A DNA stretch of 64,000 nt from Planktothrix sp. FACHB-1365 (GCF_014697575.1 NZ_JACJSC010000008.1:93075-157074), one strand, 5' to 3'. Shown: positions 6,952 to 41,100, counted from the stretch's first letter. Notes: generated by a model from the sequence alone, not told the origin. Numbers and translations: made by a program.

Positions 6952-6957
6952 CCAAAA

Positions 6958-7704: not shown

Positions 7705-7915
7705 TCAAATTATCCTCAGTCTGGGTTGAGGATATTGTATGGAATTGGAGCCAACTGTTAATCTATATTTAGGTAGAGAACCGGATTAAGTTTATGCTTC
7801 CTGATGGAGAAATATCGAGATATTTTTCATAATCTATTCCTGAAGAAAGAGGAGAACAATATTGTTTTTGATAATAGTAGTTTTAGTAATGCTTATTTTT
7901 TGGGAGAATAAAAAA

Positions 7916-8245: not shown

Positions 8246-8286
8246 GGTTGTCTTTTAATCATAATAACGAAATCTCTAGCTATTCT

Positions 8287-15579: not shown

Positions 15580-15583
15580 ATTA

Positions 15584-16339: not shown

Positions 16340-16354
16340 AACACCCTAAATCAT

Positions 16355-17122: not shown

Positions 17123-17160
17123 ATTGATATTATATCATTATTGTTTCATCCCATAAACCC

Positions 17161-18480
17161 TTAAGCTACCCAAAGATGTTGAGCAAAGCGAACTGAAAAA
17201 ATAATCAGTAACAGGGTAAAAAATCCCAAGGTGACATAACCCCAACGACGATGATGGGATAGCATTACCCCTAAAGCTAAACTAACAGAAACAATCCCAT
17301 AAGCTAAACGACTGAGGGAAATTGTACCGCCAGACGCTAATAATAAACCTAACGCACAGAAGCCATAATTTACTGCGACTAAACTAAGTTCATGGCGTAA
17401 ATACCACAGTAAATAACCTCCGCCTAAAATAATCGCTGTATTGAGTAAGGGATCACCTGCAATTAACCATAAAATAAACAGTAAAAAACAAAAACTATAA
17501 TCAAATTTTATCTCTCCTAATTGATCACGATATCGCCAAATAAAATAACCGATTATAGCAATAATTATAACTAAAAGTGGATGCCAAGGATCAACAATTG
17601 TACCTTTTTTCCAATTTTGAGAACCGATTAAAATTTGCATCACCATTTTTAACCAGCCTTGACTATCAAATCCGGTTTGGCGTTGCCATTGGGTGTGTTG
17701 AACGGTAATAAAAGCAATAGGATTATTGAATTTTATCCAACAATAGAGGCTATAAAATAATAAACCACAGCCACTTAATAAGCCGGATAAATAAGCGATC
17801 GCAGGTTTTCGTTTTTGCCAAGCTGTAATTAGAAAAGCAGGAATTAAAGCAATTCCAGTAATGCGCGTTGTGGTGGCTAAACTCCCCCATAAAATCACTT
17901 GAGGATACTTTTCTAAATCAAAGGCTTTTAAGGTAGCAATACTCAAGAATAAAAATAAACCTTCCGTATAAATAACAGTACCAAAAATCGATAAAGGACA
18001 CCAAGCTAATATAGCTGTTGCCCAACGGGCAGCTTGAGGATTATTGGTGATTTCCACCCATTGATACAGTAAAATCAAAGCTCCAAAAAAAGCCAAATTA
18101 TTAATTAAAACCCCTGCCACTTCAAAGGATAAGCCTAAATTCATTAATCCTCGAATTAATAACGGAAATAATGGAAAAAATGCCACATTTCCGCCCGGTT
18201 CTTTCTGATTAATAATTTCATATCCCGAAGTTGCAATAATTTGATAGAGGGGACTATCCCAAGCAGAAAAAACTCCCCAGCCCCACTGAGAAGAAACGGG
18301 AGAAAAGAAAGCAATTGCAAAAAACGTCAACAGAATCATACTGCGACTCAGTATCCCCATTGTTAAGGCAAAAATAATCCCATTAGATTGACAAATTGTG
18401 GCAATTTGAGTTAAAAAATCTAGTAATTTAGCAAAAAGTTGAGTTAGCACCTTCCGATAATTCATAGGTTGTTTTTTCAC
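17161..18480 (-). CDS. Polytopic integral membrane protein, possible GT-C glycosyl/mannosyltransferase-like (DUF2029-type)
   Basis: 439 aa with >=10 TM helices and short loops. Its context suggests envelope glycan modification. Confidence 0.4.
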   Translation of the reverse strand: MKKQPMNYRKVLTQLFAKLLDFLTQIATICQSNGIIFALTMGILSRSMILLTFFAIAFFSPVSSQWGWGVFSAWDSPLYQIIATSGYEIINQKEPGGNVAFFPLFPLLIRGLMNLGLSFEVAGVLINNLAFFGALILLYQWVEITNNPQAARWATAILAWCPLSIFGTVIYTEGLFLFLSIATLKAFDLEKYPQVILWGSLATTTRITGIALIPAFLITAWQKRKPAIAYLSGLLSGCGLLFYSLYCWIKFNNPIAFITVQHTQWQRQTGFDSQGWLKMVMQILIGSQNWKKGTIVDPWHPLLVIIIAIIGYFIWRYRDQLGEIKFDYSFCFLLFILWLIAGDPLLNTAIILGGGYLLWYLRHELSLVAVNYGFCALGLLLASGGTISLSRLAYGIVSVSLALGVMLSHHRRWGYVTLGFFTLLLIIFSVRFAQHLWVA

Positions 18481-18678
18481 GCCCTTATTTACAATTCAAT
18501 TAAAAATCAACTTTAATTTACAATTAGAGAAATTCTACCAAGGATCAGGCAAAATTGACATTTTTAATAAAAATTGCAGATTCAGATAAATTATGCTAGA
18601 AAAATGAATAAGGGAAGAAAAAGCTGACCCGTGCTTTCTCTGTAACTCAAAACCTCGATTTGTGCCAGGAAATGTCCT

Positions 18679-19533
18679 ATGTTTTTTAATGCAACTCAAC
18701 TTTTAATTGATAACTTTGTTGAACAACTTCGCTCAGGATATCATCATACCTATGGGGGATTTAATGCCCATTATGGGGATATTGTCGCTTGGGCTGGAGG
18801 GATGGCTTTAGAAAATATTGCCAATAGCGATGCCCTCTATCATGATGTTGAACATACCATAATCGTTACATTAGTCGGTCAGGAAATTTTACGCGGAAAA
18901 CATATCCGTGAAGGTGGGGTTTCTAGCGAAGATTGGCTGCATTTTATGATCTCTCTAGTTTGTCATGATATTGGTTATGTTAAAGGGGTTTGTCGCCAAG
19001 ATCGAGAGGGATATTATGCCACAGGATGTGATGAAAACAGGGTACTTTTGCCCTTTGGATGTACAGATGCGAGTTTAATGCCTTATCATGTTGATCGGGC
19101 TAAATTGTTTATTAAAGAACGATTTGGGGGACATCCTTTAATTGATGCAAAAGTCATTCAATCTAATATTGAACTGACGCGATTTCCAGTTCCTCAAAAA
19201 TCCGATCATCAAGATACAATCCATTATCCCGGTTTAGTGCGGGCGGCGGATTTAATTGGTCAATTAAGTGATCCTCGATATCTTCAAAAAATTAGTGCCT
19301 TATTTTATGAGTTTGAAGAAACAGGATTTAATCAAAAAGCAGGCTATCATAATCCCGGAGAGTTGCGAAGAAATTACCCTCAATTTTATTGGCATAAAGT
19401 TTATCCCTATATTAAAGATAGTCTACGGTACTTATCTTTAACTCAGCAAGGCCAACAAATTATTGCCAATCTGCACGCCAATGTCTTCCTGGTTGAACAT
19501 GAGGAAACCATCAAGGAGGTTGTTATGGTTTAA
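18679..19533 (+). CDS. Hypothetical protein with probable HD-domain metal-dependent phosphohydrolase motif
   Basis: YHDVEHTIIV...LVCHDIGYVKG gives the H..HD...H/D spacing of HD-superfamily hydrolases. Confidence 0.4.
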   Translation: MFFNATQLLIDNFVEQLRSGYHHTYGGFNAHYGDIVAWAGGMALENIANSDALYHDVEHTIIVTLVGQEILRGKHIREGGVSSEDWLHFMISLVCHDIGYVKGVCRQDREGYYATGCDENRVLLPFGCTDASLMPYHVDRAKLFIKERFGGHPLIDAKVIQSNIELTRFPVPQKSDHQDTIHYPGLVRAADLIGQLSDPRYLQKISALFYEFEETGFNQKAGYHNPGELRRNYPQFYWHKVYPYIKDSLRYLSLTQQGQQIIANLHANVFLVEHEETIKEVVMV

Positions 19534-19623
19534 TCTGTTTAATCGTTGAAGGACAAGATTTTAATGTTCCATCAGGTCATCTATCCCAAAATAGGGTAAA
19601 CTACTTTATATTTTAAATTTTTC

Positions 19624-20766
19624 ATGAGTTCCATGACGAATTCTGTTTTTTCGCCTTTACAAAGTCGTTTACTCACGGGGTTACTGATTTTAGTCGTGAG
19701 TTGGTTAAGCTTTCAATTTTTAGGTTATGTTGGCGAATTAATCAGTATATTAGTTACCTCTGGATTAATTGCCTTTCTTCTGAACTACGCCGTAGCAAAA
19801 TTAGAACGCTTTATTCCGCGAGGAATTGCCGCCGCTTTAGTGTATTTAATTGCCATTGTAACCTTTGTAATTATTGCCTTAACTCTTGTCCCCCCTGTCT
19901 TTAATCAAGGACGACAATTAATTACCCGATTACCGGAATTAATCGAATCAGGACGGCAACAGTTAGCCGAATTTCAAGTCTGGAGTGTTGAGCGTAATTT
20001 ACCCTTTGATGTGGGAATTTTACAACAGCAACTGTTGTCTCGAATTCAATCAACCATTGAACCCATCCTGACCGGAAGTTTAGGCTTAGTTCTGGGAACC
20101 TTTAATTGGTTTTTTGACTTAATTTTTATTTTGGTCATTGCCTTTTATATGTTATTAGATGGGGAACGGTTATGGAACCTCCTAATCACTATTTTATCTC
20201 CCCAAATTCGAGAGGTTTTAACCTTTTCACTAGAACGAAATTTGAAAAAATTTGTTTTAGGACAAACCTTGCAGGGAATTTTTATGGCAATCACCTTAAC
20301 CTTTGCCTTTTTAATGTTAAAAGTTCCCTATTTCCTATTATTTGCCGTTGTGATTGGATTATTGGAAATTATTCCATTTGTGGGAGCCACATTAGGAATT
20401 GGAACTGTCACTATTATCGTCGCTTTTATTGATTGGTGGCTGGCTTTACAAGTGTTAGCGGTTGCCATTGCAATTCAACAAGTGAAGGATAATATTGTTG
20501 CCCCTCGAATTATGGGAGATTTAACCGGATTAAGCCCTGTGATTATTTTTAGTGCTTTATTATTAGGAGGAAAAATAGCCGGATTATTAGGATTTATTCT
20601 GGCGATTCCGATGGCTGGGGTGGTTAAAAGTATTATTGAAGTGGTTGTTGATCCCACTTTACCTCCTCAAACCGGTTCCTTCTTTTATAATCCTTTAGAT
20701 TCAAAAGTTAACTTAACGCCAACGGAAACTTTATCTCTAGCCGAACAAGAACGCTTGAAGGTGTAA
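19624..20766 (+). CDS. AI-2E family transporter (PerM/YdiK-like permease)
   Basis: 380 aa with ~8 TM helices. The topology and C-terminal GxxG-rich helices (ALLLGGKIAGLLGFILAIPMAGVV) are typical of the family. Confidence 0.7.
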   Translation: MSSMTNSVFSPLQSRLLTGLLILVVSWLSFQFLGYVGELISILVTSGLIAFLLNYAVAKLERFIPRGIAAALVYLIAIVTFVIIALTLVPPVFNQGRQLITRLPELIESGRQQLAEFQVWSVERNLPFDVGILQQQLLSRIQSTIEPILTGSLGLVLGTFNWFFDLIFILVIAFYMLLDGERLWNLLITILSPQIREVLTFSLERNLKKFVLGQTLQGIFMAITLTFAFLMLKVPYFLLFAVVIGLLEIIPFVGATLGIGTVTIIVAFIDWWLALQVLAVAIAIQQVKDNIVAPRIMGDLTGLSPVIIFSALLLGGKIAGLLGFILAIPMAGVVKSIIEVVVDPTLPPQTGSFFYNPLDSKVNLTPTETLSLAEQERLKV

Positions 20767-21899: not shown

Positions 21900-21921
21900 A
21901 CACAATTGAATTCAAGTTCTA

Positions 21922-23379
21922 GTGATGTTAACTGATAAATCTGGATGTCGAAATGTTGTGATTGTTGGAGGCGGCCCATCGGGACTAGCGATCGCTTTAA
22001 TGTTAGCAAAACGGGGCTGGACAGAAATTACTGTTTTAGAAAAACGAAAAACGGCTGACTATTACGAACCGGATAAAGCGTTTAACTATCAAATTGATGG
22101 TCGAGGTCAAAAATTATTAGATTGGCTAGGATTAACCCCAAACCTAGCAGAAATGAGTGTTTCTAGTCAAGAATTTTACTTAACGATAATTCAACTTAAT
22201 GGAAAGCGAAAAACGATAAAATTACCCTTTATTAATCCTAATCGAAAAACAGCTTATTGGTTGCCTCGAAGAACCTTTGTTTCTTTACTTTATGAAGAAA
22301 TTGAACGCAATTGGCAACAGCAAATCACTGTTTTATTTGAAACAAAATGTATTGAATTAAATCAGAAACAGGAACAATTGCAGGTCATTGTTGAATTAAA
22401 AAATAGCGAATTAAAGCGTTTTACACCTGGTTTTGTAGTCGGTTGTGATGGTTTAAATTCTATTGTTCGTCAAACCCTAAACGACTGGGAAAAACCTGAT
22501 AATCATCGCTTTGAAATGCAATATTTTCCCTCGCCTAGTTCAGGACTGCGCTATCAAGTTTTAACCTTACCGCCTCAATTTCCGCTTTCAAACCAGCTAG
22601 ATGATCAATCTGTCTGTACAATGGCTTATGCAATTCGGGGTAAAGCCGTAGAAGGTCAGAAGAAAATTTCTTTGGGTTTATTACCGATGAAAAATCCCGA
22701 TGAACCTCGAACTGCTAATATTATTACTTATCCTCATCATAAAATTTGGACTCTAAAAACAAATCAAGAATTATATCGTTTTTTAGAACAATCTTTCCCT
22801 CAATTATCCATTCGTGATATTATTTCTGAGTCTGAAATTACACGATTTGTCAACAGTCAAGGTGGTGTTTTTCCCGTTCCTCAATTTTGTTCAGGATTAC
22901 ACTTTTTATTAAAATCTGATCAAACTTTCTCTGCCATCCTCTTATTAGGAGATGCAGTCCATTGTTTTCCCCCGGATATTGGTCAAGGGGTCAACTCAGC
23001 GTTAGAAGATGTCTATATTTTACAACAGATTCTCGAAGAAACTCAAGATGATTTATTGTTAGCTTTACCGCTATATGAAGCTCGACGTTCTGGAGATATT
23101 GAAGCGTTAATTCGTTTAGCTCAAACGACTTTTCCTTGGCAATATAACCAAAATGGGTTCCGTCGAAAGTTATGGGATATAAACTTTTTAATTAGACTGC
23201 TTCTGAATCGATTTTTGCCTTTCTTTTTCAGTCCTCCTGCATTTTTAATGATTCAAGATTATCAACTCAGTTATCAAGAAATTTGGCATCAAAACCAACG
23301 CACAAATCAACGTTTTCTCATCCTCGGTGTAACGCTGTTAGGCCTATTATTTCTTCTGGGATTCAGTTTTAACGTCTAA
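21922..23379 (+). CDS. FAD-dependent monooxygenase (kynurenine-3-monooxygenase-like fold) with C-terminal membrane anchor
   Basis: VVIVGGGPSGLAIALMLAKRGWTEITVLEKR is a GxGxxG Rossmann motif. GCDGLNSIVR and LLGDAVHCFPPDIGQGVNSALEDV are the DG and GD FAD-binding motifs of class A flavin monooxygenases. Confidence 0.7.
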   Translation: MMLTDKSGCRNVVIVGGGPSGLAIALMLAKRGWTEITVLEKRKTADYYEPDKAFNYQIDGRGQKLLDWLGLTPNLAEMSVSSQEFYLTIIQLNGKRKTIKLPFINPNRKTAYWLPRRTFVSLLYEEIERNWQQQITVLFETKCIELNQKQEQLQVIVELKNSELKRFTPGFVVGCDGLNSIVRQTLNDWEKPDNHRFEMQYFPSPSSGLRYQVLTLPPQFPLSNQLDDQSVCTMAYAIRGKAVEGQKKISLGLLPMKNPDEPRTANIITYPHHKIWTLKTNQELYRFLEQSFPQLSIRDIISESEITRFVNSQGGVFPVPQFCSGLHFLLKSDQTFSAILLLGDAVHCFPPDIGQGVNSALEDVYILQQILEETQDDLLLALPLYEARRSGDIEALIRLAQTTFPWQYNQNGFRRKLWDINFLIRLLLNRFLPFFFSPPAFLMIQDYQLSYQEIWHQNQRTNQRFLILGVTLLGLLFLLGFSFNV

Positions 23380-23410
23380 CTCAGATTGGCTTAAGAAGCT
23401 AACTTCTACC

Positions 23411-23725
23411 CTATTCACCGAGATAGGACGTTAAAGTTTGATAATCTGAAAAATCTGAACAGTTAATAGCTTGTTCTGTTAACGCAATTTTGGGATTAAT
23501 GGTACATTTTAATTGATAATTTCCGGTAAAAAATTTACAGGTTGAACAAGGAATTTTATGTAATTCTTTAACGCTGGTTATTCCTTGTGTCAGTGTTCTA
23601 TAGGTACTCCAGATTAACGAAAAAACAAATAACCAAGCAACACTAAAGCAAACAATCTGCAATAGGATCGGTGAAATAAGATTAAAAAAATATAGAATTT
23701 GAGACATGGCAGTTAGGAATAACAA
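23411..23725 (-). CDS. Small hypothetical membrane protein with Cys-rich C-terminus
   Basis: 104 aa with two N-terminal TM helices, then CSTCKFF...C...C. No known family recognised. Confidence 0.3.
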   Translation of the reverse strand: MLFLTAMSQILYFFNLISPILLQIVCFSVAWLFVFSLIWSTYRTLTQGITSVKELHKIPCSTCKFFTGNYQLKCTINPKIALTEQAINCSDFSDYQTLTSYLGE

Positions 23726-24280
23726 AGAGGTAAGCTAAAGCTAATACTCATCTATTCTGAAGGGATGACTGTTTCCCCTCATCTAACTTCAGCATGATCT
23801 GTTTGTGAATTCGGTTTGTAAATTAAGCGATAAAACTCATCCATTGAAGAAGTCTCATCATTGATTACAACCGAAATTAACAAAATCTCTACCTTAAGTT
23901 AGAAAATGAATTGATCAGAAATCGGTAAAGTATTGATTACTTCTCTATGAAGTTAAGCTTGGGAATTGAAATTTTCTGGATTCATATTGCTAAATATCCC
24001 TTAACTCCTTTTTGGATTATTTAATGGGATTTTTAAGTAAAAAATGTCCTCTTTTGAGGGTTGAGATTGCCATCTTTATCGATAAAGTTGGTGATGAATT
24101 GTAGCGTTTCGTTTCAACGCTGAAACACAATTTCTCCAAAGTTGGGTGTTGCTAGTGCAGTCGGGTTTGATTTTTTTTCTATCCCTTTCTCTGATTCATG
24201 AATGGTTTTTTTAATATTAACCCGGATGCACTGGCTCATCTTTAGCAACTTGGATTCGCTCTGATGGAGTCAGTAAATAC

Positions 24281-26512
24281 ATGGCAGCGAAATTCCCAAA
24301 ATTTGATCAAGGTCTTGCTCAAGACCCAACCACTCGCCGAATTTGGTACGGGATTGCCACGGCCCATGATTTTGAAAGCCATGATGGCATGAACGAGGAA
24401 AATCTCTATCAAAAGATTTTTGCCTCTCATTTTGGTCATTTGGCGATTATTTTTTTATGGACATCCGGCAACCTGTTCCATGTCGCTTGGCAAGGAAATT
24501 TTGAACAGTGGATTCGAGATCCCCTGCACATTCGTCCCATTGCCCATGCCATCTGGGACCCCCAATTTGGCAAACCGGCAGTGGAAGCCTTCTCCCAAGC
24601 CGGAGCTATAAACCCCGTTAATATTGCCTATTCGGGCGTTTATCATTGGTGGTATACCATTGGGATGAGAACCAACGCCGAGCTTTATCAAGGCGCTGTT
24701 TTCCTCCTGCTTTTGGCGGCATTGTTTCTATTTGCGGGCTGGTTACACCTTCAACCCAAATATCGTCCGAGTTTGTCTTGGTTCAAAAATGCGGAGTCCC
24801 GCCTTAACCACCACTTAGCGGGTTTATTTGGGGTCAGTTGTCTAGCCTGGACAGGCCATTTAGTTCATGTTGCCATTCCTGAATCCCGTGGCCAGCACGT
24901 CGGATGGGATAACTTCTTGACCACGTTACCCCATCCGGCCGGACTCAAACCCTTCTTTACTGCAAATTGGGGGGTTTATGCCCAAAATCCTGATACGGCG
25001 CAGCACGTTTTTGGCTCATCGGACGGGGCAGGAACGGCGATTTTAACGTTTTTGGGTGGGTTTCATCCCCAAACTGAATCGTTATGGCTGACGGATATTG
25101 CTCATCACCATTTAGCGATCGCGGTGATCTTTATTATTGCGGGTCATATGTACCGAACCAACTTCGGCATTGGCCACAGTATTAAAGAGATGTTGAACTC
25201 GAAAGATCCGTTGTTTGGGGTTCCCACTGAAGGACAGTTCAACTTACCCCACCAAGGTTTGTATGATACCTATAACAACTCCCTGCATTTTCAGTTAGGA
25301 ATTCACCTGGCTGCGTTGGGGGTGGTGACATCGCTGGTGGCGCAGCATATGTATTCCATGCCACCCTATGCGTTTATCGCCAGGGATTATACAACCCAAT
25401 CGGCACTGTATACCCATCATCAATATATTGCTGGGTTCCTCATGGTCGGAGCCTTTGCCCATGCGGCTATCTTCTGGGTTCGAGACTATGACCCCGACCA
25501 AAACAAAGGCAACGTTTTAGATCGGGTTTTGAATCACAAAGAAGCGATTATTTCCCATTTAAGTTGGGTGTCTCTATTTTTGGGATTCCATACCCTGGGT
25601 ATATACGTTCACAATGATGTCGTCGTTGCCTTTGGGACACCGGAAAAGCAAATTTTGATTGAACCTGTATTTGCTCAGTTCATTCAAGCGGCTCATGGTA
25701 AAGCCCTTTATGCAATGGATGTGTTACTGGCGAACCCAGACAGTATTGCCCATACTGCTTGGCCAAATCATGGGAATGTTTGGCTACCCGGTTGGTTAGA
25801 TGCGATTAATTCCGGTAAGAATTCATTGTTTTTAACCATTGGCCCTGGGGACTTCTTAGTTCACCATGCGATCGCTTTGGGTCTACACACCACCACCTTA
25901 ATTTGTGTCAAAGGTGCGTTAGATGCCCGTGGCACTAAACTGATGCCTGATAAAAAAGACTTCGGTTTTACCTTCCCTTGTGATGGCCCTGGACGGGGGG
26001 GCACTTGTCAAACGTCGGCTTGGGAGCAATCGTTCTTCCTAGCAACTTTCTGGATGTTGAATACCCTCGGTTGGATCACGTTCTATTTCCACTGGAAACA
26101 TTTAGGGGTGTGGCAAGGAAACGTTGCTCAATTTAATGAAAGCTCAACCTATATTATGGGTTGGTTTCGGGATTACCTCTGGCTGTATTCGGCTCAGGTG
26201 ATCAATGGTTACAACCCCTACGGAACCAGTAACCTCTCGGTTTGGGCCTGGATGTTTCTGTTCGGACATTTGGTTTGGGCCACTGGGTTTATGTTCTTGA
26301 TCTCTTGGCGAGGCTATTGGCAAGAACTGATTGAAACGTTAGTTTGGGCCCATGAACGCACCCCTCTGGCGAACCTTGTGATCTGGAAAGACAAACCGGT
26401 TTCGCTGTCAATTGTTCAAGGATGGTTAACGGGTTTAGTTCACTTTACGGTGGGCTATATCCTCACCTATGCCGCGTTCCTACTGGCTTCAACGGCTGGA
26501 AAATTTGGCTGA
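24281..26512 (+). CDS. psaB: Photosystem I P700 chlorophyll a apoprotein A2 (PsaB), stand-alone and somewhat divergent copy
   Basis: The N-terminus [36 protein letters not shown] matches PsaB ([36 protein letters not shown]). The FX loop [19 protein letters not shown] is present. It is 743 aa and ends ...GKFG. Confidence 0.93.
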
Positions 26513-26540
26513 TCATCCCTGAAAGGGTGAATGATTAACT

Positions 26541-26573
26541 ATAGGGGTGACGACAGTTGCCCCTATGTTTTTG
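26541..26573 (+). terminator. Intrinsic terminator of psaB: ATAGGGG-(12 nt)-CCCCTAT then GTTTTTG
   Basis: 7-bp GC-rich stem plus T-tract about 30 nt after the psaB stop, read directly. Confidence 0.55.
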
Positions 26574-26633
26574 TGCTTCAGTATTAGAAATCAGGTTAGC
26601 TATTATAGGGATGAACCTTGTTGCAACACCACA

Positions 26634-26888
26634 ATGAGCATCAATCTCACCTCTGACCAAGAACAATTTATTCAAACTCAACTAGAATCTGGAAAATATC
26701 AAACCCCTGAACAAGTCATCTCAACTGCGTTGCGCCTACTGGATGAATGGCAAAGGGCTGAGGCAGAATGGGCTAAAGATGTGGCAGCTAAAATCGATGC
26801 GGCTGTATCCACCTCTGAAGAAAATCCTCCCCTTGATGGTGAAACTTTTATCAATGAGATTTTAGAACGGTTTAAGCCAACCCATTAG
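26634..26888 (+). CDS. ParD/CopG-like ribbon-helix-helix antitoxin (type II TA antitoxin), orphan
   Basis: MSINLTSDQEQFIQTQLESGKYQTPEQVISTALRLLDEW matches the ParD-family N-terminus pattern (..L.pe.e.Fi..qv.sGrY.sasEVvReaLRLLee). The start was moved downstream of the psaB terminator. No toxin ORF follows. Confidence 0.55.
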   Translation: MSINLTSDQEQFIQTQLESGKYQTPEQVISTALRLLDEWQRAEAEWAKDVAAKIDAAVSTSEENPPLDGETFINEILERFKPTH

Positions 26889-27109
26889 GATACAACGATG
26901 CTGCTTGCTAGTTACCAGGAGCGTCGCACAAGTCGCTCACTGGATCAAACTGCATTGTTGGATAGTGTATATTTATAATCTATAGAAGGATTTTAATGGC
27001 AACAGCGCAATGGACTATTCCCGACTGGTAAAACTCAGCCAAGAACTGTTAACCAGAACTGCCCTTCTGAGCTTAAGCTATTCGGCTCTAGTAAGGAGAA
27101 GTAATATCA

Positions 27110-30100
27110 ATGACCGTTTTTTATGTTTGTCTCACAGAGCAGTGTAGAATTGATGCTACTAAGTATGGTGTCATTCAAGATATTGAAAAGTTTGCTGAAA
27201 AGCTAAAAAAAGACCAAAGTACGAGAGGACTTGATCGATTTCCAAAACCCTATTGGAAGAAATCAATGGCAAGAGGTCGTATTGTTATTGAAGAGTATCC
27301 TCTGAGTGAAGACAAGATCATCCTCGGCCTGTCCCGATTTTTCATGCGAGGGTCTGATGATCGAGAATATGAGCCTTCTTATAAAGACACAGAATCTTTT
27401 TGGAATAAAAACAAGGTTTCTGGTTCTGAAATAGAAGCATTTCTTGACACCATAAAAAAAACACCAATTCCTCCCAAAAAACAGTTATCAGAAATTGAGA
27501 GTCAGTATCTTCAATCGATATCAAGTTCTTACTTGACTGATGAACCTGTATTCTTAGAAAGTTATGACTGGGTTGATCGTATATCTCAGGATTATATCAA
27601 ACATCATATTTCACGCTATTCCGATTTAAGCAAGAATATTGCATTTGAAGAATTTGCGCCTAATCAAGATTTGATCAAGCACGCAACAAATCCTAACATT
27701 CAAATTCTATATCGGTATTTTCCAGAACATAAGAGAATATTATTAATATCTCCCCTAAACAAAAATAAACAAGACGATGAAAAAGAGTTACGAGAGAAGT
27801 ATAAAGATATTTTAGTTAATTCACAAGTCGAACTTGACACAATTATCCGTTGGAGTCGGCGTGCCTACCCTTCGATCATTGTCTGTGATGAGGAAGTGTG
27901 GATACAGGTTCAGAACACTGCTGAGGCTAATTTAGCATTATCGCCTGAAGAAGAGAAAATTCTTGAAAAAATATCAAATCCTGCTCATGGAGAACCAAGA
28001 TATCCATTATTTATCAATGGACGACCAGGTAGTGCTAAATCAACTATCCTTCAGTATTTATTTAGTGAGCATTTAACTCACTATAAAGACGAGGCTGGCT
28101 CATTAGTCAATCCACCATTGTACTTGACTTACAGCACTCCACTTTTGGAGAAAGCTCGTTCATCTGTAAAAGATATTTTACTCTGTGGTGCAAAACATCT
28201 TGAGCATGGATCTAATTCCAAAGAGAATCCAAAATTGAAGCAGATATTAGATCAGAGTTTTCGCACTTTTCGTGACTTTTTGCGTGAGAAACTTCCTCAT
28301 GAAGTGAAGGCTGATTTTGTGGATGCTAAGTATATAAACTTTGAGCAGTTCCGCAAGGAGTGGGATAAGGCACGAGAAAAACTACCTAAATCTGAAGAGC
28401 AACGTAATATTAGTTCAGGGCTTGCATGGCACGCCATAAGAACCTTTATTAAGGGTATGCAAAACGAATTGGGTGCTGAAATCGATCCTGAATTTTACGA
28501 ATGTGAATTACCTCGCAATTTAAAATCCATCTCAGATAACACCTTTCAATTAATTTACGAGAAAATTTGGCAACGTTGGTATAAACCACTTTGCGGAAAA
28601 GAAGGCTTTTGGGATGACCAAGACTTAGCTCATGCAGTTTTAGAGTATTCAGCCAACGAATTATCACAATACCCGGCAGTGTTCTGTGATGAAGCTCAAG
28701 ATTTCACCAGCGTTGAACTTGAGTTGATTCAACGTTTATCTCTTTACTCTGATCGCCAAATACCTAGCCATCTTGCTAAGGATGTTCCGTTTGCCTTTGC
28801 AGGCGATCCTTTTCAAACTTTAAACCCCACAGGGTTCAACTGGACTGCAACACAGGCGAGTTTTCATAAAAACATTGTTCAGAAGTTCGACGATAGCAGT
28901 GGTTCTGCCAAATTAGAGTTTAATTATCAAGAACTATCCTTCAACTACCGTTCATCAGAACAAATTGTCAAGTTAGCTAATTTAATTCAACTTCTACGAG
29001 GGAAACTGCTAGATATTAAAGGCTTGCGTCCACAGCAAAGTTGGACAAGACAAGAAACAAGTAGTCCTGTATGGTTCCGAGCAGAAGATGCAGCTTGTAA
29101 AGACAAAATTCGAGAACAAAAGGAACTGATTATCATTATTCCTTGTGAAGAGAACGGTGAAGTGGAGTATATTAAAGGTGATCCTTTTCTGTCTAGCTTT
29201 GCGTTAGGGAATGATGAGAAGGTTTCAAGAAACATTTTAAGCCCAGCAAGAGCTAAAGGATTGGAGTATAAGCGTGTATTGCTATACAAGTTTGGTGAAG
29301 AAGCAAGAAAAAAAGTGCCAGAATTTCTGAAATATCTTAAAAATATTAATGATCCAAAACTTGAGCCTCCTGAGATTGAAGAGTGTTTGGCATGGGAGTA
29401 TTTTCTTAACCAGTTTTATGTTGCAGTAAGTCGCGCTCGCAAACGTTTGTTTATCGTAGATTCTGATCAGGCACTAGAAGAGTTCTGGAAATTATTTACA
29501 GATATCCAAAAACAACGTGAACTACTTGACTTATATCAAAGTATCAATAGTAATGAACAGTGGAGCCTTGAAAACATAGGTGGCATGATACAAGGTGACG
29601 AAGACAGCTGGTCAGCTGATCGTGATGATCCGTATAAGTTAGCTCAGAATTATGAGGCTCAAGGTCGTAGCTCAAGAGATCCCGATCTGCTAGATCTTGC
29701 TAGCTGGAACTATCATCTTGCTAACTGTCCTGACAAAGCCAAGCTTTGTCAAGCAGCCGCCTACGAATTTAGGGAACATTTTGCAAATGCAGGTAATTTA
29801 TTCAAAGAGTTAAAGCAAGCCAATGATGCTTGTCGGTGCTATTGGGCTGGAAAAGATGTAGATGCAATTATCGATTTAGTTAAGCAACTTCCTGAAATTG
29901 ATACAAACCCGCGCGTTACAGCAGCAAGAGTCATCAAACGAGATCAAAATACTAGGCAAGACATTGACAATCTGCTGACTGCTTTACAAAAGGTTGAACC
30001 TATAAGATCAGATGATTCCACTAAAATCGAAAGTAGCGCATGGCAGTGGTTTTTTAAGGAACTGATTATTAAAGTCGATCAGGCAATTACATCGAGTGGC

Positions 30101-31573
30101 GAAGCTCATCTTTTAGGCTGGAAACCGTTAATTGAAGGTATAGTCAAAACTTTAAGTCACCTCAATTTTTCCTCCAAAGATTATCCAGATATCGGCAAGT
30201 TGTACTTCTTGGTTGGAGAATTTCAAGAAGCTGTCACACATTGGGATAAATGTTCTGCCATTCAGAAACAGTCTCAGAAGTCACCAACGTGGCTTCTTCG
30301 ATCACGGGCTAAAATAGAAGGTTATCCAGACAATCTCCAATATTATCATCAACTGAAAGATGACAATGCTGTAATAGAGGCTTGGCGAAGTGCTGGGAGT
30401 CCTATTCCTAGAGAAACACCCGTCGTCAACAGAATTCTCGAATCTGCTGTAAAAATTGGTAATGTTGAGGCTATCCGATCCCTACTTCCTGTCTGCAATG
30501 ACATTGCAAAAGTAAGGGACTTGGTTAGGGATAGCAAGAATGAGGTACTCCGTGAACTGCGTGGTAGTATTTCTGTTGCTATTAACCAATGCTTGGAAGC
30601 CGATAGCGAATGGGAAGAAATTGTCAACTTTACCCAGACTTACGAGATTAGTCATTTGCTGATTGGAAAATCACGAAATATTCCATATAGTTCGCTCAAT
30701 GAGGAGTTGAAAAAAGCGAAAATTGAGTGGGATCAATCAATTGCTATTGCCGCTGCTGTGCGCGTGCTTGCCAGATCCGAGCGACTTGTTAAGGAGAATT
30801 TTAAGTCTCAACAAATCATTTCAGAATTCCTGAAGCAACATCTCATCATTGACAATAATAGTAGCCCAGAACAACACAAAATCATGCGGGAAGTTCATCA
30901 AATATTGAGTGTAGATGAGGTTGGGTCTGCTTTTGAAAGGGCATTCAAACTCACTTTTGCCTTTGAATATTACGAACAATGGTACAAGAGCAATAGTCCA
31001 GCCCAAGAACTTCACCTGATTTCTCCATCATCTAAGGATATCAATCTTGCCAAGCGACGCTGGATGAAATGCAAATATATCCTCGCTGAGACAGAACAAA
31101 ACGCACGAAGCCCTCAACTGAAAGAGGAAGCTCAAAAGATGGCTGATCAATTAAACGTGTCTATTGATGATGAGCCAAAATACTTAGAACTTCCTGACAT
31201 CACTGAGTTGAATATTCCAAGTTCTTCAGAAGCAATAACACCAAAAGCTTTGATTCTAACAAAAGATATGAACGAAGAACTAACCATTAAAGGCTTAAAT
31301 TTCATCGTGAAGACAGACCATATCCAGAAGCAGCGTATTTCTCTTAAACGAGTCGATAATGGGGATAATGTTTTGTTCAGTCTAAACAAGGTAAGCAGTG
31401 ATGATGTATCAGTCAAAGAGTTGGCAGAAACTCCTACACTAAAAGTTTGGGTAATTGAGGAATGGGATATTAACATTGAAAGTCAAACTAATACAGGTGA
31501 TTCTATCATTTCGTTAAAAACGAGTGAAGGCAACCCGATTATTCGTATTGAATTACCGAAAATATCAAACTGA
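27110..31573 (+). CDS. 1487-aa multidomain protein: ~270-aa N-terminal domain of unknown function, SF1 (UvrD/PcrA-like) helicase core, ~680-aa helical (TPR-like) C-terminal region
   Basis: Q-motif-like LALSPEEEKIL. Walker A LFINGRPGSAKSTIL. Motif II VFCDEAQDFTSVE. Motif VI-like YVAVSRARKRLFIVD. The codon usage (AGA/AGG, AAG, CTT/CTA, GGA) differs from neighbouring native genes (TTA, AAA, CGT/CGA, GGG/GGT). Confidence 0.8.
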   Translation: MTVFYVCLTEQCRIDATKYGVIQDIEKFAEKLKKDQSTRGLDRFPKPYWKKSMARGRIVIEEYPLSEDKIILGLSRFFMRGSDDREYEPSYKDTESFWNKNKVSGSEIEAFLDTIKKTPIPPKKQLSEIESQYLQSISSSYLTDEPVFLESYDWVDRISQDYIKHHISRYSDLSKNIAFEEFAPNQDLIKHATNPNIQILYRYFPEHKRILLISPLNKNKQDDEKELREKYKDILVNSQVELDTIIRWSRRAYPSIIVCDEEVWIQVQNTAEANLALSPEEEKILEKISNPAHGEPRYPLFINGRPGSAKSTILQYLFSEHLTHYKDEAGSLVNPPLYLTYSTPLLEKARSSVKDILLCGAKHLEHGSNSKENPKLKQILDQSFRTFRDFLREKLPHEVKADFVDAKYINFEQFRKEWDKAREKLPKSEEQRNISSGLAWHAIRTFIKGMQNELGAEIDPEFYECELPRNLKSISDNTFQLIYEKIWQRWYKPLCGKEGFWDDQDLAHAVLEYSANELSQYPAVFCDEAQDFTSVELELIQRLSLYSDRQIPSHLAKDVPFAFAGDPFQTLNPTGFNWTATQASFHKNIVQKFDDSSGSAKLEFNYQELSFNYRSSEQIVKLANLIQLLRGKLLDIKGLRPQQSWTRQETSSPVWFRAEDAACKDKIREQKELIIIIPCEENGEVEYIKGDPFLSSFALGNDEKVSRNILSPARAKGLEYKRVLLYKFGEEARKKVPEFLKYLKNINDPKLEPPEIEECLAWEYFLNQFYVAVSRARKRLFIVDSDQALEEFWKLFTDIQKQRELLDLYQSINSNEQWSLENIGGMIQGDEDSWSADRDDPYKLAQNYEAQGRSSRDPDLLDLASWNYHLANCPDKAKLCQAAAYEFREHFANAGNLFKELKQANDACRCYWAGKDVDAIIDLVKQLPEIDTNPRVTAARVIKRDQNTRQDIDNLLTALQKVEPIRSDDSTKIESSAWQWFFKELIIKVDQAITSSGEAHLLGWKPLIEGIVKTLSHLNFSSKDYPDIGKLYFLVGEFQEAVTHWDKCSAIQKQSQKSPTWLLRSRAKIEGYPDNLQYYHQLKDDNAVIEAWRSAGSPIPRETPVVNRILESAVKIGNVEAIRSLLPVCNDIAKVRDLVRDSKNEVLRELRGSISVAINQCLEADSEWEEIVNFTQTYEISHLLIGKSRNIPYSSLNEELKKAKIEWDQSIAIAAAVRVLARSERLVKENFKSQQIISEFLKQHLIIDNNSSPEQHKIMREVHQILSVDEVGSAFERAFKLTFAFEYYEQWYKSNSPAQELHLISPSSKDINLAKRRWMKCKYILAETEQNARSPQLKEEAQKMADQLNVSIDDEPKYLELPDITELNIPSSSEAITPKALILTKDMNEELTIKGLNFIVKTDHIQKQRISLKRVDNGDNVLFSLNKVSSDDVSVKELAETPTLKVWVIEEWDINIESQTNTGDSIISLKTSEGNPIIRIELPKISN

Positions 31574-31861
31574 TCTCAAATTAAAGAATGTGAAGCCTTC
31601 TATAAAAAGCTGCACCATTGCCTGCGATGAGCATACAGTGGTGGCAGCTAACTGATTGGGATCGGTCTATTTTCTGTGTTTGCAGGCTGTGTTATAGCAC
31701 TACGGAAAAAAGTAAACCAGTATTCTTCTCAAACCGATTGACCCAAACCTCAACACAACCGTGATCCCTATCACACAACTCTAATTCGTATCAGAAGATA
31801 GTGGATTTACAGTATTTAGGCCACAACCATGTTGACTGGAGAACGCAAGGCGGACAACCGG

Positions 31862-32173
31862 ATGGATAGTCCTGAAACCGCCAGTGGAGTTATTCGCCTC
31901 AAACCCCAACAATACATCCATATTCTCGATACCAATACCGGGGTCACTCGCTTAGAAGTTGGCCCCCAAACCATTACGCTTCGGGATCATGATCGCCTTG
32001 CCTTACGTCCAGAGTCCATGATCGTTGTCCCCCCTCGCTATTATTGCATCATTACTAATCCGGTTTTGCGAGATGAAGACGGTCAACCCTTGGCGGATCA
32101 ACATGGTCAAATTCGGCTCCGCTATCAAGCTAATTCCATGACGACATCAATTGTATGTCCTAACACTTCATAA
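31862..32173 (+). pseudogene. Truncated major-vault-protein (MVP)-like gene: only the N-terminal ~100 codons (first vault repeat) remain
   Basis: MDSPETASGVIRLKPQQYIHILDTNTGVTRLEVGPQTITLRDHDRLALRPESMIVVPPRYYCIITNPVLRDEDGQPLADQHGQIRLRYQ aligns with vertebrate MVP [86 protein letters not shown] (~45% identity, no gaps). Homology stops at codon ~100 (nt ~32128), exactly at the stop codon of the convergent HD-GYP gene. Confidence 0.6.
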
Positions 32174-35198: not shown

Positions 35199-38100
35199 TT
35201 AGGACATTTTAGATAAACAGCGTTCTAAATAAATTTGAGCCACTTTATCCATCGGAAGATAATGTAGACATTCTTGGAATAATCTAGCAGCCTCGGAGTA
35301 ACGTTCTAAATAATATTGCATTAATCCATATTCAAAGGTGGTTTTTGTCCGAAGTTTTCCGGCTTTTATTTCCGGCAAATCTGAATCAAATACTTCATAT
35401 ACCGTTACCGCATCGGATTTTCCTTTGACTTTGACTCGATCAATAATCCGAATTGCATACTCGTTGGCATTTCCTAAAGCCATAAAAGTAGGATGGGTAA
35501 TTAATAAAGACACCCCATAATTTTTTGTTAAATTTTCAATGCGAGAAGCTACATTAACAGAATCACTAATCACTGTACTATCCAGTCGATTTTTACCCCC
35601 CACAATTCCTAACATTAATCCTCCGGTATTAATACCAATTCCAATTTTAATCGGGGGACGTTCGGGGCGTTGTCGGGTTTCATTATACTCATTCAGTCGG
35701 CTAATCATTGAAATCCCAGCCCGAACTGCATCATCAGCAGACCCGCCAAATAATGCCATAATTTCATCCCCAATATATTTATCAATAAAACCATAATTTT
35801 CGACGATGGCAGGTTCCATGCGACTTAAAAACGCATTAATAAATTTAAAATTATCTTCAGGAGTCATCCCTTCAGAAAGGCTGGTAAAGTCCCGAATATC
35901 AGCAAATAAAATCGACATTTCCTTTTGAACTGCCGCCCCTAACTGAACTTCTACAATACTTTCATAACCTAAAAAAGATAAAAATTCATGGGGAACGAAT
36001 CGCGCCGCCGCATCCGTTAGTTCAAATTCCGAATCTAACGCTTCATCTAAATGATGATTCAATTCTGAAAGTTTTGCCATAAATTGTAAGCGTTCTTCTT
36101 CGGCAGTTTTTCGTTCCGTAATATCAACGACAAACCCTTCATAATACAGTAATTCATTCTGATCATTAAAGACAGCCCGTGCATTTTCTGAAATCCAAAT
36201 AATGCTACCATCTTTGCGGTAGGCTTTAAATTCAAATCCTGAAACTTCCCCTTGTTGATCAATTAATTGTATAAAATCTAATCGGCGTTGAGAATCTACA
36301 TAAATTTGTTCTTCAACATTCATCACCGTTGACATTAAATCCCAAGGAGAATCATAACCTAAAATCTTCGCTAAGGCAGGATTTGCACTGATATAATGCC
36401 CCTCCCTGGTGGTTTGAAATAAGCCTTCACTGGCATTTTCAAATATACTGCGATATTTTTCTTCGGCTTGTCTTAAAGCCAGTTCTGTTTGCTGACGTTT
36501 TGTGATATCTTGAAACGCCAGAATCGCATACATTAAATCCCCCTCTTCATCATAAGTCGGTGTTACCCAATTTTCAAGCAATATCGTTTGTTCTCCTTGA
36601 TTCACTTCTAAAAGAAACGTGGTATCGGGTGTAGGATTATATAAATCACAATAAGGTGTTAATTGATCAAATTGATGCTGTTGACACCAATTAAGATAAG
36701 CTTGATAAATATTAGATAAAGCTTCACAAAATAATCCAGGAGTGACTTTAGTTTTGAGCAATTGTTGAGCTTTTTGATTGGTAAAATAGGGTTTACCCGT
36801 AGGGTCTAAAACAGCAACGCCAACCGGAATTCCTTCTAAGAATTGCGTCATCTGTTGTTCATTATTACGAACTTGAGAATAAAGTTTAGCATTATCAATG
36901 GAAATCGCGGCTTGAGAAAACAGAATTTTGAGGACTTCTAATCGTTCTGGAGTAAACACTGCGGTTGCTAAGTTATTTTCAAGGTATAGAATTCCAATCA
37001 ATTTTCCTCGATTTTGAATGGGAGTCATGAGGATTGATTTGGATTGATGTTCTATTAAATAAGGATCATTACGATACCGAGATTCTTGACGAGCATCTGC
37101 TAAAATTAGAAACTCTTGGGTTTGAATCACGGTATTCAGAATTAACAAAGGTAAAACATTACTCTGTTCTACAGAAACAGATTTTAATAAGGATTCAATC
37201 TCAATAGACCCTCCTTTCGTCGGGTTTAAACTGGCTATTGCTTCTATCGCTAATTTTCCCGATTTAGATAAAAGAATACAACATTTTTCGGCTCCTGCGT
37301 TTTCAATTACCACTTGAATTAATCGTTTCAAAAGTTGTTCTAAATCGATTTCTTGAGATAAAGCTTGAGAAGCTTTTGTTACCGTTGCTAAATCGAGAGC
37401 AGCCGAACCTCCATGACTACTAGAAATAATGGTTTCTGTCGTATTATTACTGATTGTTGTGCCTGTTGTGGGAATAACAAGTTGTGATAAAATAGAATGT
37501 AAAAGTTGAGGATAACGAGATTCTAAATCTTTGACTTTTGCCAAAGCACCCCAATGAGCATAACTATAATAGGCATCAATTAAATAAACCCTGGCTATTT
37601 TTTCTTTCCCCCAATCTAAATAAAATTTAGCCGCTAATTCCTCTGCTAACGCTTCTTCTTGAATAAATTGATAGGTTTTAGCCAAAGTAATCGCTTGTTC
37701 ATAGGCTTCAATGGCTTTAATATAATCTCCTTGAATGTGGTTAAATTCGGCCTCCACCAAATAAAATAGATGGGAAAAGTTCATCGGAGTCCCCTGAGAA
37801 AAAGCTTTTAATTTTTCTTGATTTTGAGTTACTTTTTCTAAAATTTTAACTTGGTCTTCTGGCGATAACTCCGGGTAGATTGCTAAATTAATTAAAGATT
37901 GATAACAATAAAAAAACGGTTGTAAAACAAAATAGGTGTCTTGGTTTAAATAGTATTCAGCTTGCTGAGACCATTCCTTCGCCTGCTGTAATTGATCTAA
38001 TCTATAATTCAGAACCATGAAATTTAAACTAAGTTCAAAAGAAATTTCCTGGGTCGAATATCCAATTTCAGTCGTTCCTATTGTGCCGTTTTCAGCATGA

Positions 38101-41100
38101 CCTGTAAAATTTAATGAGGTGTCTCCCTCTAATTTTCCATTTAAAATTTGCAAGCTTTGATAATAGGTGGTCAAAATTAATAGTTCTGACGGAGGTTTAA
38201 AATTTTGTAATTGATTTAAACACTGACTCAATTCAAACTCCAATTCAGAGACATCGTTTCCCGTGAAATAAGCGATTTCAAGATAAGCTTGAGCGAGACA
38301 ATAAGCTTCATCAATTTTCCCAGCTTCTTGAGCTTGTAAATAGCAAGTTTTGAGGGGAGATAAAACCTGCTTTAAGGAAGTTTTCCAAGGTTTAATAAAC
38401 CGATAAACCAGTTGTTTAACTTTGATAATTAATGCGGAATTTGCTTGTTTTTGCGATAATTCTAAAGCTAATTCTCCCATTTGATTCCCGAACTCAATTT
38501 CCCCTTGGGTACAAAGAATAAATCCAAAGACAGCATAGACAAAACTTGATAACGTTGTATTTCCTTGTTGATACGATAAATGAATCAGTTTTAAAACCCA
38601 AAATGGGAATTGTTCGGGAATTACCCGATAAGCGGAAGGAAAAGCAGAGGTTAAAATTGTAAATAAATTTACTAAATTAGTATCGGATAATTCCGGTAAA
38701 TCTAATAACGCTAAGGGTGTTCTTCCCCCTAAATCATTCATAAAATTATGCTTAAATTTTTGCCAACTTTCTTGACTAAAATTATCACCCCAGGTAAACC
38801 CTAATTGTTGACAAACAGCTAACGCAAGATTGACCGCATTGTCATCTTGATTTTGAATTCTATAAGCTTGAATCATTAACTCATAAATTCTGACTTTATG
38901 TCCTAATGTTTGAGCATTTTCTAAAACAATATTTCCCCACTTCTGTAAATTTTCCCAATCTTGACTAAGATAAGCAATTTCTGCTGCTTCTGTGTATAAT
39001 TCTAAGGTTAATTGATAGTCTCGTTCCCAACTCTCCGTTGTCAATAGCCCCAGACCAATTGCTAAATGTCCAATGGCTGTCGGATAGGCGGTGGCAATTT
39101 TGGCTTTTCGTCCGGCTATTAAATTAAATAAGGCTAATTGATCTCGTTCTTTTTGATCCTGAATTAAGCCGACTCCTAAATTAAGTTGATTAATGATATT
39201 TAATAAAACTTCGGTTGAAATTTTATTTAAAATCATCTTAATGGATTGATTAAAATATTGTTTTTTAATTTGATTTAAAAGGGAATTTCCGATTTTCAAA
39301 TGGGTCGCTTGTCGTTGATGAGTGGGAATTAAAAGATAAGCAGCTTGTTGAACCCGGTCATGAATAAATTGGTATTTATCAATACCGGGTTGTAACAACG
39401 GTAAGGTTTCATTCGGATCAAAGTGTGAAGGGTAAGATACTTCAGTTTCTAAGGAATAAAAGGGATAAATATCTCTAGCAATAACAATAAATTGAGCCTG
39501 TAAAGCAATTTCTAAAGCTTTTAATGTTTCTAAATAAGTTTTTTGAGTTGCGGTGGCTAAATCTACTGCATTAAATTGATTTCCTAAACAAGCCGCAATT
39601 TTTAAAATTTCTTGGGTGTTTGGCGGTAATTGTTGTAATTGATGAAGAATTAAATCTAAAATATTAGAGTTAATAGAACGGGTTTTAATTTGAGTTAAAT
39701 TACATTGCCAACCTCCGAATAAATTTCGATTTTTCAACGAAGATTGAGGCGGATTAAACCAAATTAGTTTTTCTGTATATAAGGATTGGAGAAATTGACG
39801 AACAAAAAAAGGATTTCCTTGAGTTTTTTGACTGACTAATTCTGCCAAAGGTTTAGCCCGGTCTAAGGAACAAACTAATGTTTCTGCTATTAGTTGATTA
39901 ATGGCAGAATCTTCTAAAGCATTTAAAGGAATTCGATGTAAGGGAATTCCTGAATTTTCTAAGGTTTCTAAGATTTTAATTAAAGGATGTGTTTCCCCGA
40001 TCTCGTCATCCCGATACGCTAAAATTAGCACTAAGGTTGGAGGTGTAGAATAAATATTTTGTTCAGGACTCATCAAAACCTGAATTAATCGTAAGGATTC
40101 AACATCAGCCCATTGTAAATCATCTAAAAAAATGACTAAGGGATGATGAGGTTGGGCAAAAGTTTGAATGAGCTTTTGAATTAAGCGATTAAACTGATTC
40201 AGGTCAATTTTGACCTCTAATTCAGTCAGGGAAGACTGTTGATTTAATAAAACTTTCAGTTCAGGAATAACAGCCATTAAAACCGGGGCTTGATCTCCGA
40301 GTCCATTTAAAAGTTTCTTTTTCCAAGCTTCTACCTGTTCCAAAGGTTCAGTTAACACTTGTTGAATTAATTGTTTAATTCCTTGTACCCACCCCCAGAA
40401 AGGCGTATTCGTTTTAAATTGATCAAATTTTCCGGTGATAAAATAACTGTGAATAAAGGTGACGCAAGGAGTTACGGGCAGAACTCCTGTTCGACAATAT
40501 GCCACGGTTTGATAGAATTCTTGAACGAGGGCGGACTTGCCTATTCCTGATTGACCTGTAATTACAATAATTTCTGATTGAGCCTTGTTTAAAATCGAGG
40601 TTAAACGCTTAATTTCTGGCTCTCGCCCATAAAATTTATTCGGAATAATAAATCGATCATTTAAGTCAATCGTCGCCAAAGGAAACGGAGGAATGTCCCC
40701 CAGTTTTTCCCATTGTTCTAAACAATTTTCTAAATCATAGCGCAGTCCTAATGGTGTTTGATAACGCTCGTCTGGATTTTTAGCCATCAATTTTAAGATA
40801 ATATTATTGAGCATTATCGGTAAGGTTGGTTTAATTTTGCTTAAAGGCTGAGGAAGCAGGGCTAAGTGAGCATGGATTAATTCTAGGGGATCGGAGGATG
40901 GAAACGGAAGTTTTCGAGTTAATAATTGATAAAGGGTTACTCCTAAAGAGTACAAATCTGTGCGATAATCAATACCCCAATGGGTTCGTCCGGTTTGTTC
41001 GGGAGACATATAAGCTAAAGTTCCTTCTAATCCTTGAGAATTAACAACTTCTTGATGGGAATGGTTGAGTTGAATAGAAATACTGAAGTCAATTAGTTGA

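Follow-up and report, generated by a model that had tools for sequence, protein, structure and literature searches.

Nhi, Hna and type II Mokosh each combine in one gene a superfamily 1 or 2 (SF1/SF2) motor with a nuclease effector, the effectors being DNA or PLD-type nucleases. UvrD-type motors can serve as immune sensors, as GajB does, and a sensor-fused RelE domain can act on ribosomes in immunity, as in Cami1. A RelE-like domain (RTL) also accompanies the helicase of CnuH, a protein of type II/III-A CoCoNuT systems. CnuH has a UPF1-like SF1 motor with an inserted coiled coil and an OB fold like that of SmpB, and it acts alongside McrBC-like CnuB/C and the HEPN protein CnuE, all encoded in one multi-gene operon; its RTL domain is reported not to be conserved in sequence with characterised toxins (PMC11090510). 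Here we analyse a 64,000-nucleotide stretch of Planktothrix sp. FACHB-1365 (GCF_014697575.1, NZ_JACJSC010000008.1:93075-157074; hereafter the window, with positions counted from its first letter) and describe within it a gene (27110..31573, plus strand) whose 1,487-aa product, which we call RelE-helicase, joins a RelE-fold domain, a linker, a UvrD-like SF1 helicase, a tetratricopeptide repeat (TPR)-like solenoid and a beta-sandwich. Sequence comparison and structure models suggest that it is a one-polypeptide effector-motor-sensor member of an undescribed family. The predicted domain architecture is well supported, and from it we infer a function: we give even odds to the proposal that the protein is a single-gene immune device, in which a RelE-type RNase gated by the helicase and the TPR tail would arrest translation upon infection. 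Somewhat more tentatively, RelE-helicase could be the first known of a widespread kind of immune receptor made of one protein, so far overlooked and unlike any catalogued defence system, in which a UvrD motor and a diversifying TPR/beta-sandwich tail gate a built-in, antitoxin-free RelE mRNA interferase. What is new is best classed as the combination of modules in a large cross-phylum family, the single-gene sensor-plus-toxin logic of abortive infection being already known.

Although the family has a single likeness to each of CnuH, Gabija, Cami1, STAND/Avs and the canonical RelBE/ParDE systems, it lacks the features that define them. With CnuH it shares a RelE-fold domain, recognisable by structure only, that immediately precedes the SF1 helicase of a predicted defence protein; it differs in its UvrD-type motifs, its TPR tail, its lack of partners and its retention of a RelE-like residue set, and among the clusters obtained by comparing all against all the 624 neighbour open reading frames (ORFs) of 80 family loci, none is McrB/C-like or HEPN. 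GajB, the best PADLOC match (partial, 2e-9), likewise employs a UvrD-type motor in immunity but is a shorter protein (~500-600 aa) that depends on GajA, an OLD-family nuclease, whereas the GajB matches of RelE-helicase are partial and a conserved GajA-like partner is absent from the 80 loci. Cami1, a CARF-RelE protein of type III CRISPR systems (PDB 8PHB/8PHJ), is ~375 aa long, senses cyclic tetra-adenylate via CARF and depends on the CRISPR signal, whereas RelE-helicase stands alone, combines a TPR tail with a helicase driven by ATP, and lacks any CARF match in Pfam or PADLOC; a type III module adjoins the family gene at one locus only (L060). The layout of N-terminal effector, central NTPase and C-terminal repeat sensor recalls STAND/Avs proteins, but in RelE-helicase that central NTPase is an SF1 helicase, with two RecA domains and motifs III-VI, rather than a NACHT or NB-ARC domain, and the PADLOC Avs models do not match it. 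RelBE and ParDE share the toxin fold and probably the chemistry; they differ from RelE-helicase in that the latter has no separate antitoxin and its toxin comprises the first 95 of 1,487 residues, presumably under control in cis. The one-gene logic of Nhi, Hna and type II Mokosh is also like that of RelE-helicase; the PADLOC models of these three systems do not match the protein, and we know of no RelE-type ribosome-dependent RNase or long TPR tail in any of them. Finally, an exact-word literature search, outside whose scope many subscription papers lie, returned no fusion of RelE with a UvrD-like or other SF1 helicase beyond the CoCoNuT papers.

The gene is an uninterrupted ORF with an ATG start and 1,487 codons, and Planktothrix sp. 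FACHB-1365 has an identical protein on record, annotated 'hypothetical protein'. Every Pfam match is sub-threshold (UvrD_C, 18.5 bits against a cutoff of 25.6; UvrD_C_2, 20.6 against 27.4; SLFN/Schlafen helicase), so that neither UvrD-helicase nor UvrD_C reaches its gathering threshold, and NCBIfam returns zero matches. PADLOC, searched as the preliminary description of the gene had proposed, yields partial GajB-type helicase matches only, confined to the motif regions, and PHROGs gives a weak 'DNA helicase' match (5e-9). Pfam, NCBIfam and PADLOC thus assign the protein to no curated family or defence system, in keeping with the earlier remark that its domain combination was not a recognised one.

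That description had also found neither a match for the N-terminal domain nor any nuclease. By sequence methods the first statement stands, as Pfam searches with 27 homologues and phmmer and hmmsearch against the PDB return only noise for the N-terminal ~290 aa; by structure it does not. An AlphaFold2 model of residues 1-292, computed from an alignment of 27 sequences, is confident (mean pLDDT 84.6), and its residues 1-92 adopt the compact beta-alpha-alpha-beta-beta-beta(-alpha) fold of the RelE/ParE toxin superfamily, here in the order beta-alpha-alpha-beta-beta-beta-alpha. Foldseek places RelE/ParE-superfamily toxins at all of ranks 1-49, Cami1 among them, including one entry of Cami1 bound to the 70S ribosome. 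We regard the RelE/ParE fold assignment of the modelled domain (residues ~1-95; 27110..27394, plus strand) as solid; the absence of a nuclease is thereby contradicted at the structural level, and the ribonuclease-toxin fold at the N-terminus would supply the missing effector.

Within this domain five candidate catalytic residues are retained across 184 family sequences: position 50 is Lys or Arg in 170 and position 51 in 178, R57 is kept in 182, position 80 is Arg or Lys in 178, and Y87 is Tyr in 174. In the model they lie in beta2, at the start of beta3, at the end of beta4 and in the C-terminal helix, the same elements that bear K52, K54, R61, R81 and Y87 of Escherichia coli RelE, which we take to be its catalytic residues. 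An hhalign comparison with the RelE family profile covers the whole domain with weak support (P ~0.006-0.01) and pairs P45 with P48, Y48 with Y51, K51 with K54, R57 with R61 and Y87 with Y87 (P ~0.01); the E. coli RelE sequence was checked against PDB 4V7K/4FXE. Conservation and model together make a RelE-like active site likely, and its predicted activity is ribosome-dependent mRNA cleavage. A rival reading is a DNA-directed effector whose N-terminal domain acts like ParE and poisons DNA gyrase or a topoisomerase, or otherwise acts on DNA together with the UvrD-like motor; we hold it to be highly improbable.

The RelE-fold domain is followed by an alpha/beta linker subdomain (residues ~96-270; 27395..27919, plus strand), which is confidently folded in the model, includes E150, W154, Y253, P254 and W264 among its invariant columns in the family alignment, and could regulate the RelE domain in cis. 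It has no Pfam or PDB sequence match. We considered whether it might be a duplicated RelE fold and rejected the idea, as hhalign shows no profile similarity to subdomain 1.

The helicase core (residues ~271-800; 27920..29509, plus strand) is the complete UvrD/PcrA-like motor that had been noted before, with Walker A GRPGSAKST (residues 304-312; 28019-28045), motif II DEAQD (527-531; 28688-28702) and motif VI SRARKRL (774-780; 29429-29449), all on the plus strand. Motif III is AGDPFQTLNPTGF in the 1,487-aa protein and is given for the helicase core as GDPFQTLNPTGF, with NYRS as motif IV and AKGLEY as motif V, so that the UvrD/Rep/PcrA set of motifs I, II, III (GDxxQ), IV (NYRS), V (AKGLEF) and VI (SRAR) is present throughout. 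Across 66 aligned family sequences every SF1 motif is invariant or close to it, and many homologues bear precomputed PF00580 and PF13361 assignments. Because of these motif forms (GDxxQ...G, NYRS, AKGLEF, SRAR) and the best profile matches (UvrD_C, PF00580 in homologues, GajB), the core belongs, as judged from sequence, with the UvrD/Rep-type SF1 helicases and not with the UPF1 type.

For the remainder of the protein, the earlier reading of a C-terminal helical region with TPR-like features is borne out. Sequence searches return TPR-like matches only, and a model of residues 796-1487 (pLDDT 86.7) shows a solenoid of ~35 helices, roughly residues 841-1348, followed by a discrete beta-sandwich. 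The predicted TPR-like alpha-solenoid (residues ~801-1350, helical repeats from ~841; 29510..31159, plus strand) varies more than any other part of the family's proteins and is a candidate ligand-binding or sensor domain; its fold matches are all generic TPR, and the tail resembles peptide- and protein-binding receptors. The modelled beta-sandwich (residues ~1380-1484; 31247..31561, plus strand) has no match in the same search. Structure prediction of both termini, proposed at the outset, has therefore identified the RelE fold and the TPR-like solenoid and left the linker subdomain and the beta-sandwich unmatched.

RelE-helicase has more than 400 homologues, most of them full-length at 30-65% identity and mostly 1,350-1,700 aa long (also given as 1,350-1,680 aa), its closest relative being just 65% identical; at every family locus the gene is a single long ORF. 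An exhaustive profile search with the N-terminal 290 residues, run on clusters at 50% identity, retrieved 829 clusters at E<=1e-3, of which 644 also pass E<=1e-10. In the best 150 of the 829 matches the module always lies at or near the N-terminus of proteins that are 1,300-1,750 aa long or look truncated, with no other architecture among the 150. The helicase core is highly conserved and the N-terminal 290 residues substantially so, whereas the C-terminal 650 residues are the least conserved, as a sensor under diversifying pressure would be. With one genome taken per species, members occur in 313 of 185,579 species (~0.17%) and span more than 15 phyla: the hosts include cyanobacteria, Gamma-, Alpha- and Deltaproteobacteria, myxobacteria, Firmicutes, Chloroflexota, Acidobacteria, Nitrospirae and Gemmatimonadota, as well as Bacteroidota, Ignavibacteria, Verrucomicrobia, Planctomycetes, Armatimonadota, several candidate phyla and one archaeon-labelled metagenome-assembled genome (MAG). 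To judge from these sequences, the family has spread horizontally and sporadically across phyla.

This distribution bears directly on whether RelE-helicase is an ordinary DNA-repair or replication helicase of the UvrD, Rep, PcrA, RecB or HelD type with lineage-specific extensions. Its UvrD-type motifs and weak UvrD_C and GajB profile matches would suit such a role, but the Pfam helicase matches are all sub-threshold and NCBIfam has none, synteny is not conserved, the gene is present in only ~0.17% of species genomes, P. agardhii lacks it at a junction that has been mapped precisely, and the N-terminus carries a toxin fold. Membership of a housekeeping helicase family with core-genome synteny, the finding named in advance as fatal to a defence role, is not what we observe in a gene with variable neighbours and 313 carriers among ~186,000 species, and we consider the housekeeping explanation effectively refuted.

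The family is almost absent from viral sequence, with one full-length member in the 2.9 million viral contigs of IMG/VR. That member (L084, 184-4536) lies ~2 kb from terminase genes at 6433-8820, encoding a large (1.8e-146) and a small subunit, and a ParB-like/methyltransferase gene is also nearby. Since it adjoins terminase genes, at least one phage or prophage carries the family gene; a phage origin of the family as a whole was considered and rejected on the grounds that this full-length relative is the only one.

Clustering of the neighbour ORFs supports the earlier statement that the gene is a lone one: partner genes are not conserved, even the most widely shared cluster being common to just 5 of the 80 loci, and no consistent link to integrases, transposases or plasmids is apparent across them. 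Co-occurrence with known defence islands, which had been suggested as a check, is seen at a subset of loci. Within 7 kb of the family gene, defence genes are found at at least 8 of the 41 fully flanked loci and additionally at L049, and since only selected large neighbours were scanned, 8 of 41 is a lower bound. At L039, DrmD (3e-193) and a type IIG/DrmMI protein (E = 0) lie upstream and a DruE-like helicase downstream, and at L060 Druantia DruH3/DruE3 (E = 0) lie upstream and type III CRISPR Cas10 and Cas7 downstream. Other neighbours include type I HsdR (L034), Mokosh MkoA (L041), DrmMI (L049, L057), PbeA (L051, L079) and DruE (L078), and Hma, BrxH and DUF499 matches also occur. The family gene thus lies inside defence islands at some of its loci. 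In the Kofleriaceae MAG that contributes L060 (positions 14878-19887), the family member has Druantia type III immediately upstream and the type III CRISPR module immediately downstream, so that three systems stand within about 20 kb.

These features suggest a working model of infection-triggered translation arrest. In the resting state the RelE domain would be held inactive in cis, possibly by the linker subdomain and/or the helicase, because in a protein without an antitoxin gene a constitutively active toxin would be lethal; such restraint would in turn account for the absence of that gene. Infection might be sensed by the TPR/beta-sandwich tail, through binding of a phage protein or peptide, or by the UvrD-like motor, through engagement of foreign nucleic acid in the manner of GajB in Gabija. 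ATP binding or hydrolysis would then free or position the RelE domain, which would cut mRNA in the ribosomal A site and so arrest translation, leading to abortive infection or dormancy.

Several points weigh against this model. Similarity to RelE at the sequence level is weak in the hhalign comparison, and the residue equivalence relies on a low-confidence alignment and on position in the predicted secondary structure: R80 falls opposite K80, beside R81 rather than on it, K50 falls opposite I53, and K50 and K51 are neighbours whereas RelE K52 and K54 stand at i and i+2. No toxin family appears among the Pfam matches of the protein and of 27 N-terminal homologues, even at E<=1. Tethering to a 160-kDa protein puts access of the domain to the A site in question, Cami1 being much smaller. 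In addition, only ~20% of examined loci, as a raw share, have verified defence neighbours, and in the window the gene stands among psaB, a monooxygenase and signalling genes, not in a classic defence island.

Some of these same points could favour a catalytically dead RelE-fold domain that serves only as an RNA or ribosome adaptor and recruits the helicase, for instance where ribosomes stall or collide or where transcription and translation conflict, making the protein a nucleic-acid surveillance or quality-control factor rather than a toxin-based immune effector. The silence of the Pfam toxin models and the marginal RelE similarity would be expected of such a domain, whether the analogous RTL domain of CnuH is active is likewise uncertain (PMC11090510), and a harmless domain is the simplest account of the absent antitoxin gene. 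We nevertheless consider it unlikely, since the Lys-Lys-Arg-Arg-Tyr set is nearly invariant and, in the low-confidence alignment, sits at RelE catalytic positions, while the rare and patchy distribution, the absence from sister strains and the embedding in defence islands all speak against a housekeeping role.

If RelE-helicase is indeed a gated RelE RNase, then RelE, the textbook toxin of toxin-antitoxin (TA) systems, would have been domesticated as the arrest or killing module of an ATP-driven sensor protein that needs no antitoxin, and the link between TA systems and phage defence would extend further than the CapRel-like and Cami1-like examples. Control of effectors that target translation, a task of CARF and STAND domains, would fall to UvrD-type motors as well. 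Members of ~640-830 clusters in more than 15 phyla, currently annotated 'hypothetical protein' or generic 'UvrD-like helicase', would gain an identity and a set of testable residues (K310 in the motor; K50, K51, R57, R80 and Y87 in the RelE domain).

In Planktothrix sp. FACHB-1365 the gene is part of a strain-specific variable segment of 10.2 kb (21901..32128) between an OppC-like permease gene and an HD-GYP gene. By blastn, the P. agardhii locus (L093) is collinear with the window on both flanks and lacks the 10,228-bp segment, with a 7-bp junction at which the HD-GYP gene directly abuts the permease gene; the downstream HD-GYP gene is kept across Planktothrix at 83-92% identity. The segment carries a FAD monooxygenase gene, a lone psaB, a ParD ORF, RelE-helicase and a vault-protein gene fragment, whereas the same slot in the closest relative holds a full-length major vault protein (MVP) gene and DUF29. 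Given the extra segment relative to P. agardhii and this different content in the relative, the oppC/HD-GYP junction is a variable-cargo hotspot, of which RelE-helicase is cargo in this strain, and the gene is accessory, being absent from sister Planktothrix genomes at the same junction. The junction may therefore be a place to find further accessory or defence genes in bloom-forming cyanobacteria. At the segment boundaries, direct and inverted repeats amount only to short matches at chance level.

It is on these comparative data, and not on composition, that accessory status depends. The preliminary description had placed the gene in a block of foreign composition, an attribution we reject, as its GC content (0.386) equals the window mean (0.386); a GC bump at 24-27 kb corresponds to psaB (0.476), and petA is similarly high (0.46). 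Its view of the gene as a stand-alone defence candidate accordingly keeps the lone fusion, the scattered distribution and the defence genes near at least 8 of 41 loci, and loses the statements on composition and on the lack of a nuclease.

The orphan antitoxin that had been noted beside the gene is a real ParD-like ribbon-helix-helix ORF (26634..26888, plus strand; 84 aa from M30 of a 113-aa ORF; Pfam ParD_antitoxin 6e-6, TIGR02606 3e-10) that ends 222 bp upstream of RelE-helicase, but the association is probably coincidental and a functional partnership unlikely, judging from the other loci. We rejected ParD as a cognate antitoxin because the small upstream ORFs at 43 loci are mutually unrelated and look spurious, no neighbour being conserved in that position, and tblastn detects a ParD homologue near only one other family member (L072), 1.4 kb downstream and overlapping its own ParE gene. 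A truncated ParE remnant in the 222-bp gap was likewise rejected, the ParE similarity of a 26-aa ORF there being equalled by 733 of 2,000 shuffles, and no ParE gene or fragment was found anywhere in the 64-kb window. A promoter and terminator scan of the interval between ParD and the gene gave no excess over shuffles, and the one hairpin nearby that resembles a terminator is upstream of ParD.

The decayed TA remnant in a variable hotspot, orphan ParD, is among the observations that would suit a selfish, self-contained addiction or competition module, in which a fused toxin-antitoxin stabilises the mobile DNA that carries it and has no anti-phage role. RelE/ParE toxins are the classic addiction modules, the gene moves horizontally, and one homologue lies on a phage-type contig beside terminase genes. 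A conserved ATPase motor and a variable repeat sensor of 500 aa, within a protein of 1,487 aa, nevertheless go far beyond what stabilisation needs, the 80 loci show no consistent link to integrases, transposases or plasmids, and the 2.9 million viral contigs hold a single full-length match; we judge an addiction module distinctly improbable beside a gated immune RNase.

Other genes of the window were noted in passing. Within the variable segment, psaB (24281-26512, plus strand) is full-length (TIGR01336 equivalog, 1,522 bits) and lacks an accompanying psaA; because it lies inside the 10.2-kb segment missing from P. agardhii, it looks like an extra, accessory copy of the photosystem I core gene. 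A 114-aa ORF (31829-32173, plus strand) that overlaps the 3' end of the HD-GYP gene contains a Vault_2 repeat of the major vault protein (E 1.3e-12) and is the remnant of a cyanobacterial vault-protein gene, since the full-length MVP homologue of the closest relative (872 aa, with Vault, Vault_2/3/4 and MVP_shoulder domains) fills the same slot. A second indel relative to P. agardhii L093 spans window positions 15565-17160, where two minus-strand ORFs (15584-16339 and 16355-17122) are without counterpart in the collinear P. agardhii stretch.

Further downstream, a 937-aa protein (41719-44535, minus strand) fuses an SF1 helicase (UvrD_C_2, 1e-10) to C-terminal pentapeptide repeats (8e-39); unlike RelE-helicase, this fusion is kept in Planktothrix, its P. 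agardhii orthologue showing a weak NERD domain. A 2,121-aa signalling protein (35199-41567, minus strand) with Ser/Thr kinase, AAA_16 (STAND-like ATPase), TPR, GAF, PAS and adenylate/guanylate cyclase domains is conserved among sister Planktothrix genomes, and a 2,689-aa protein (52026-60095, plus strand) combines an N-terminal two-partner-secretion (TPS) domain with a C-terminal CHAT protease domain.

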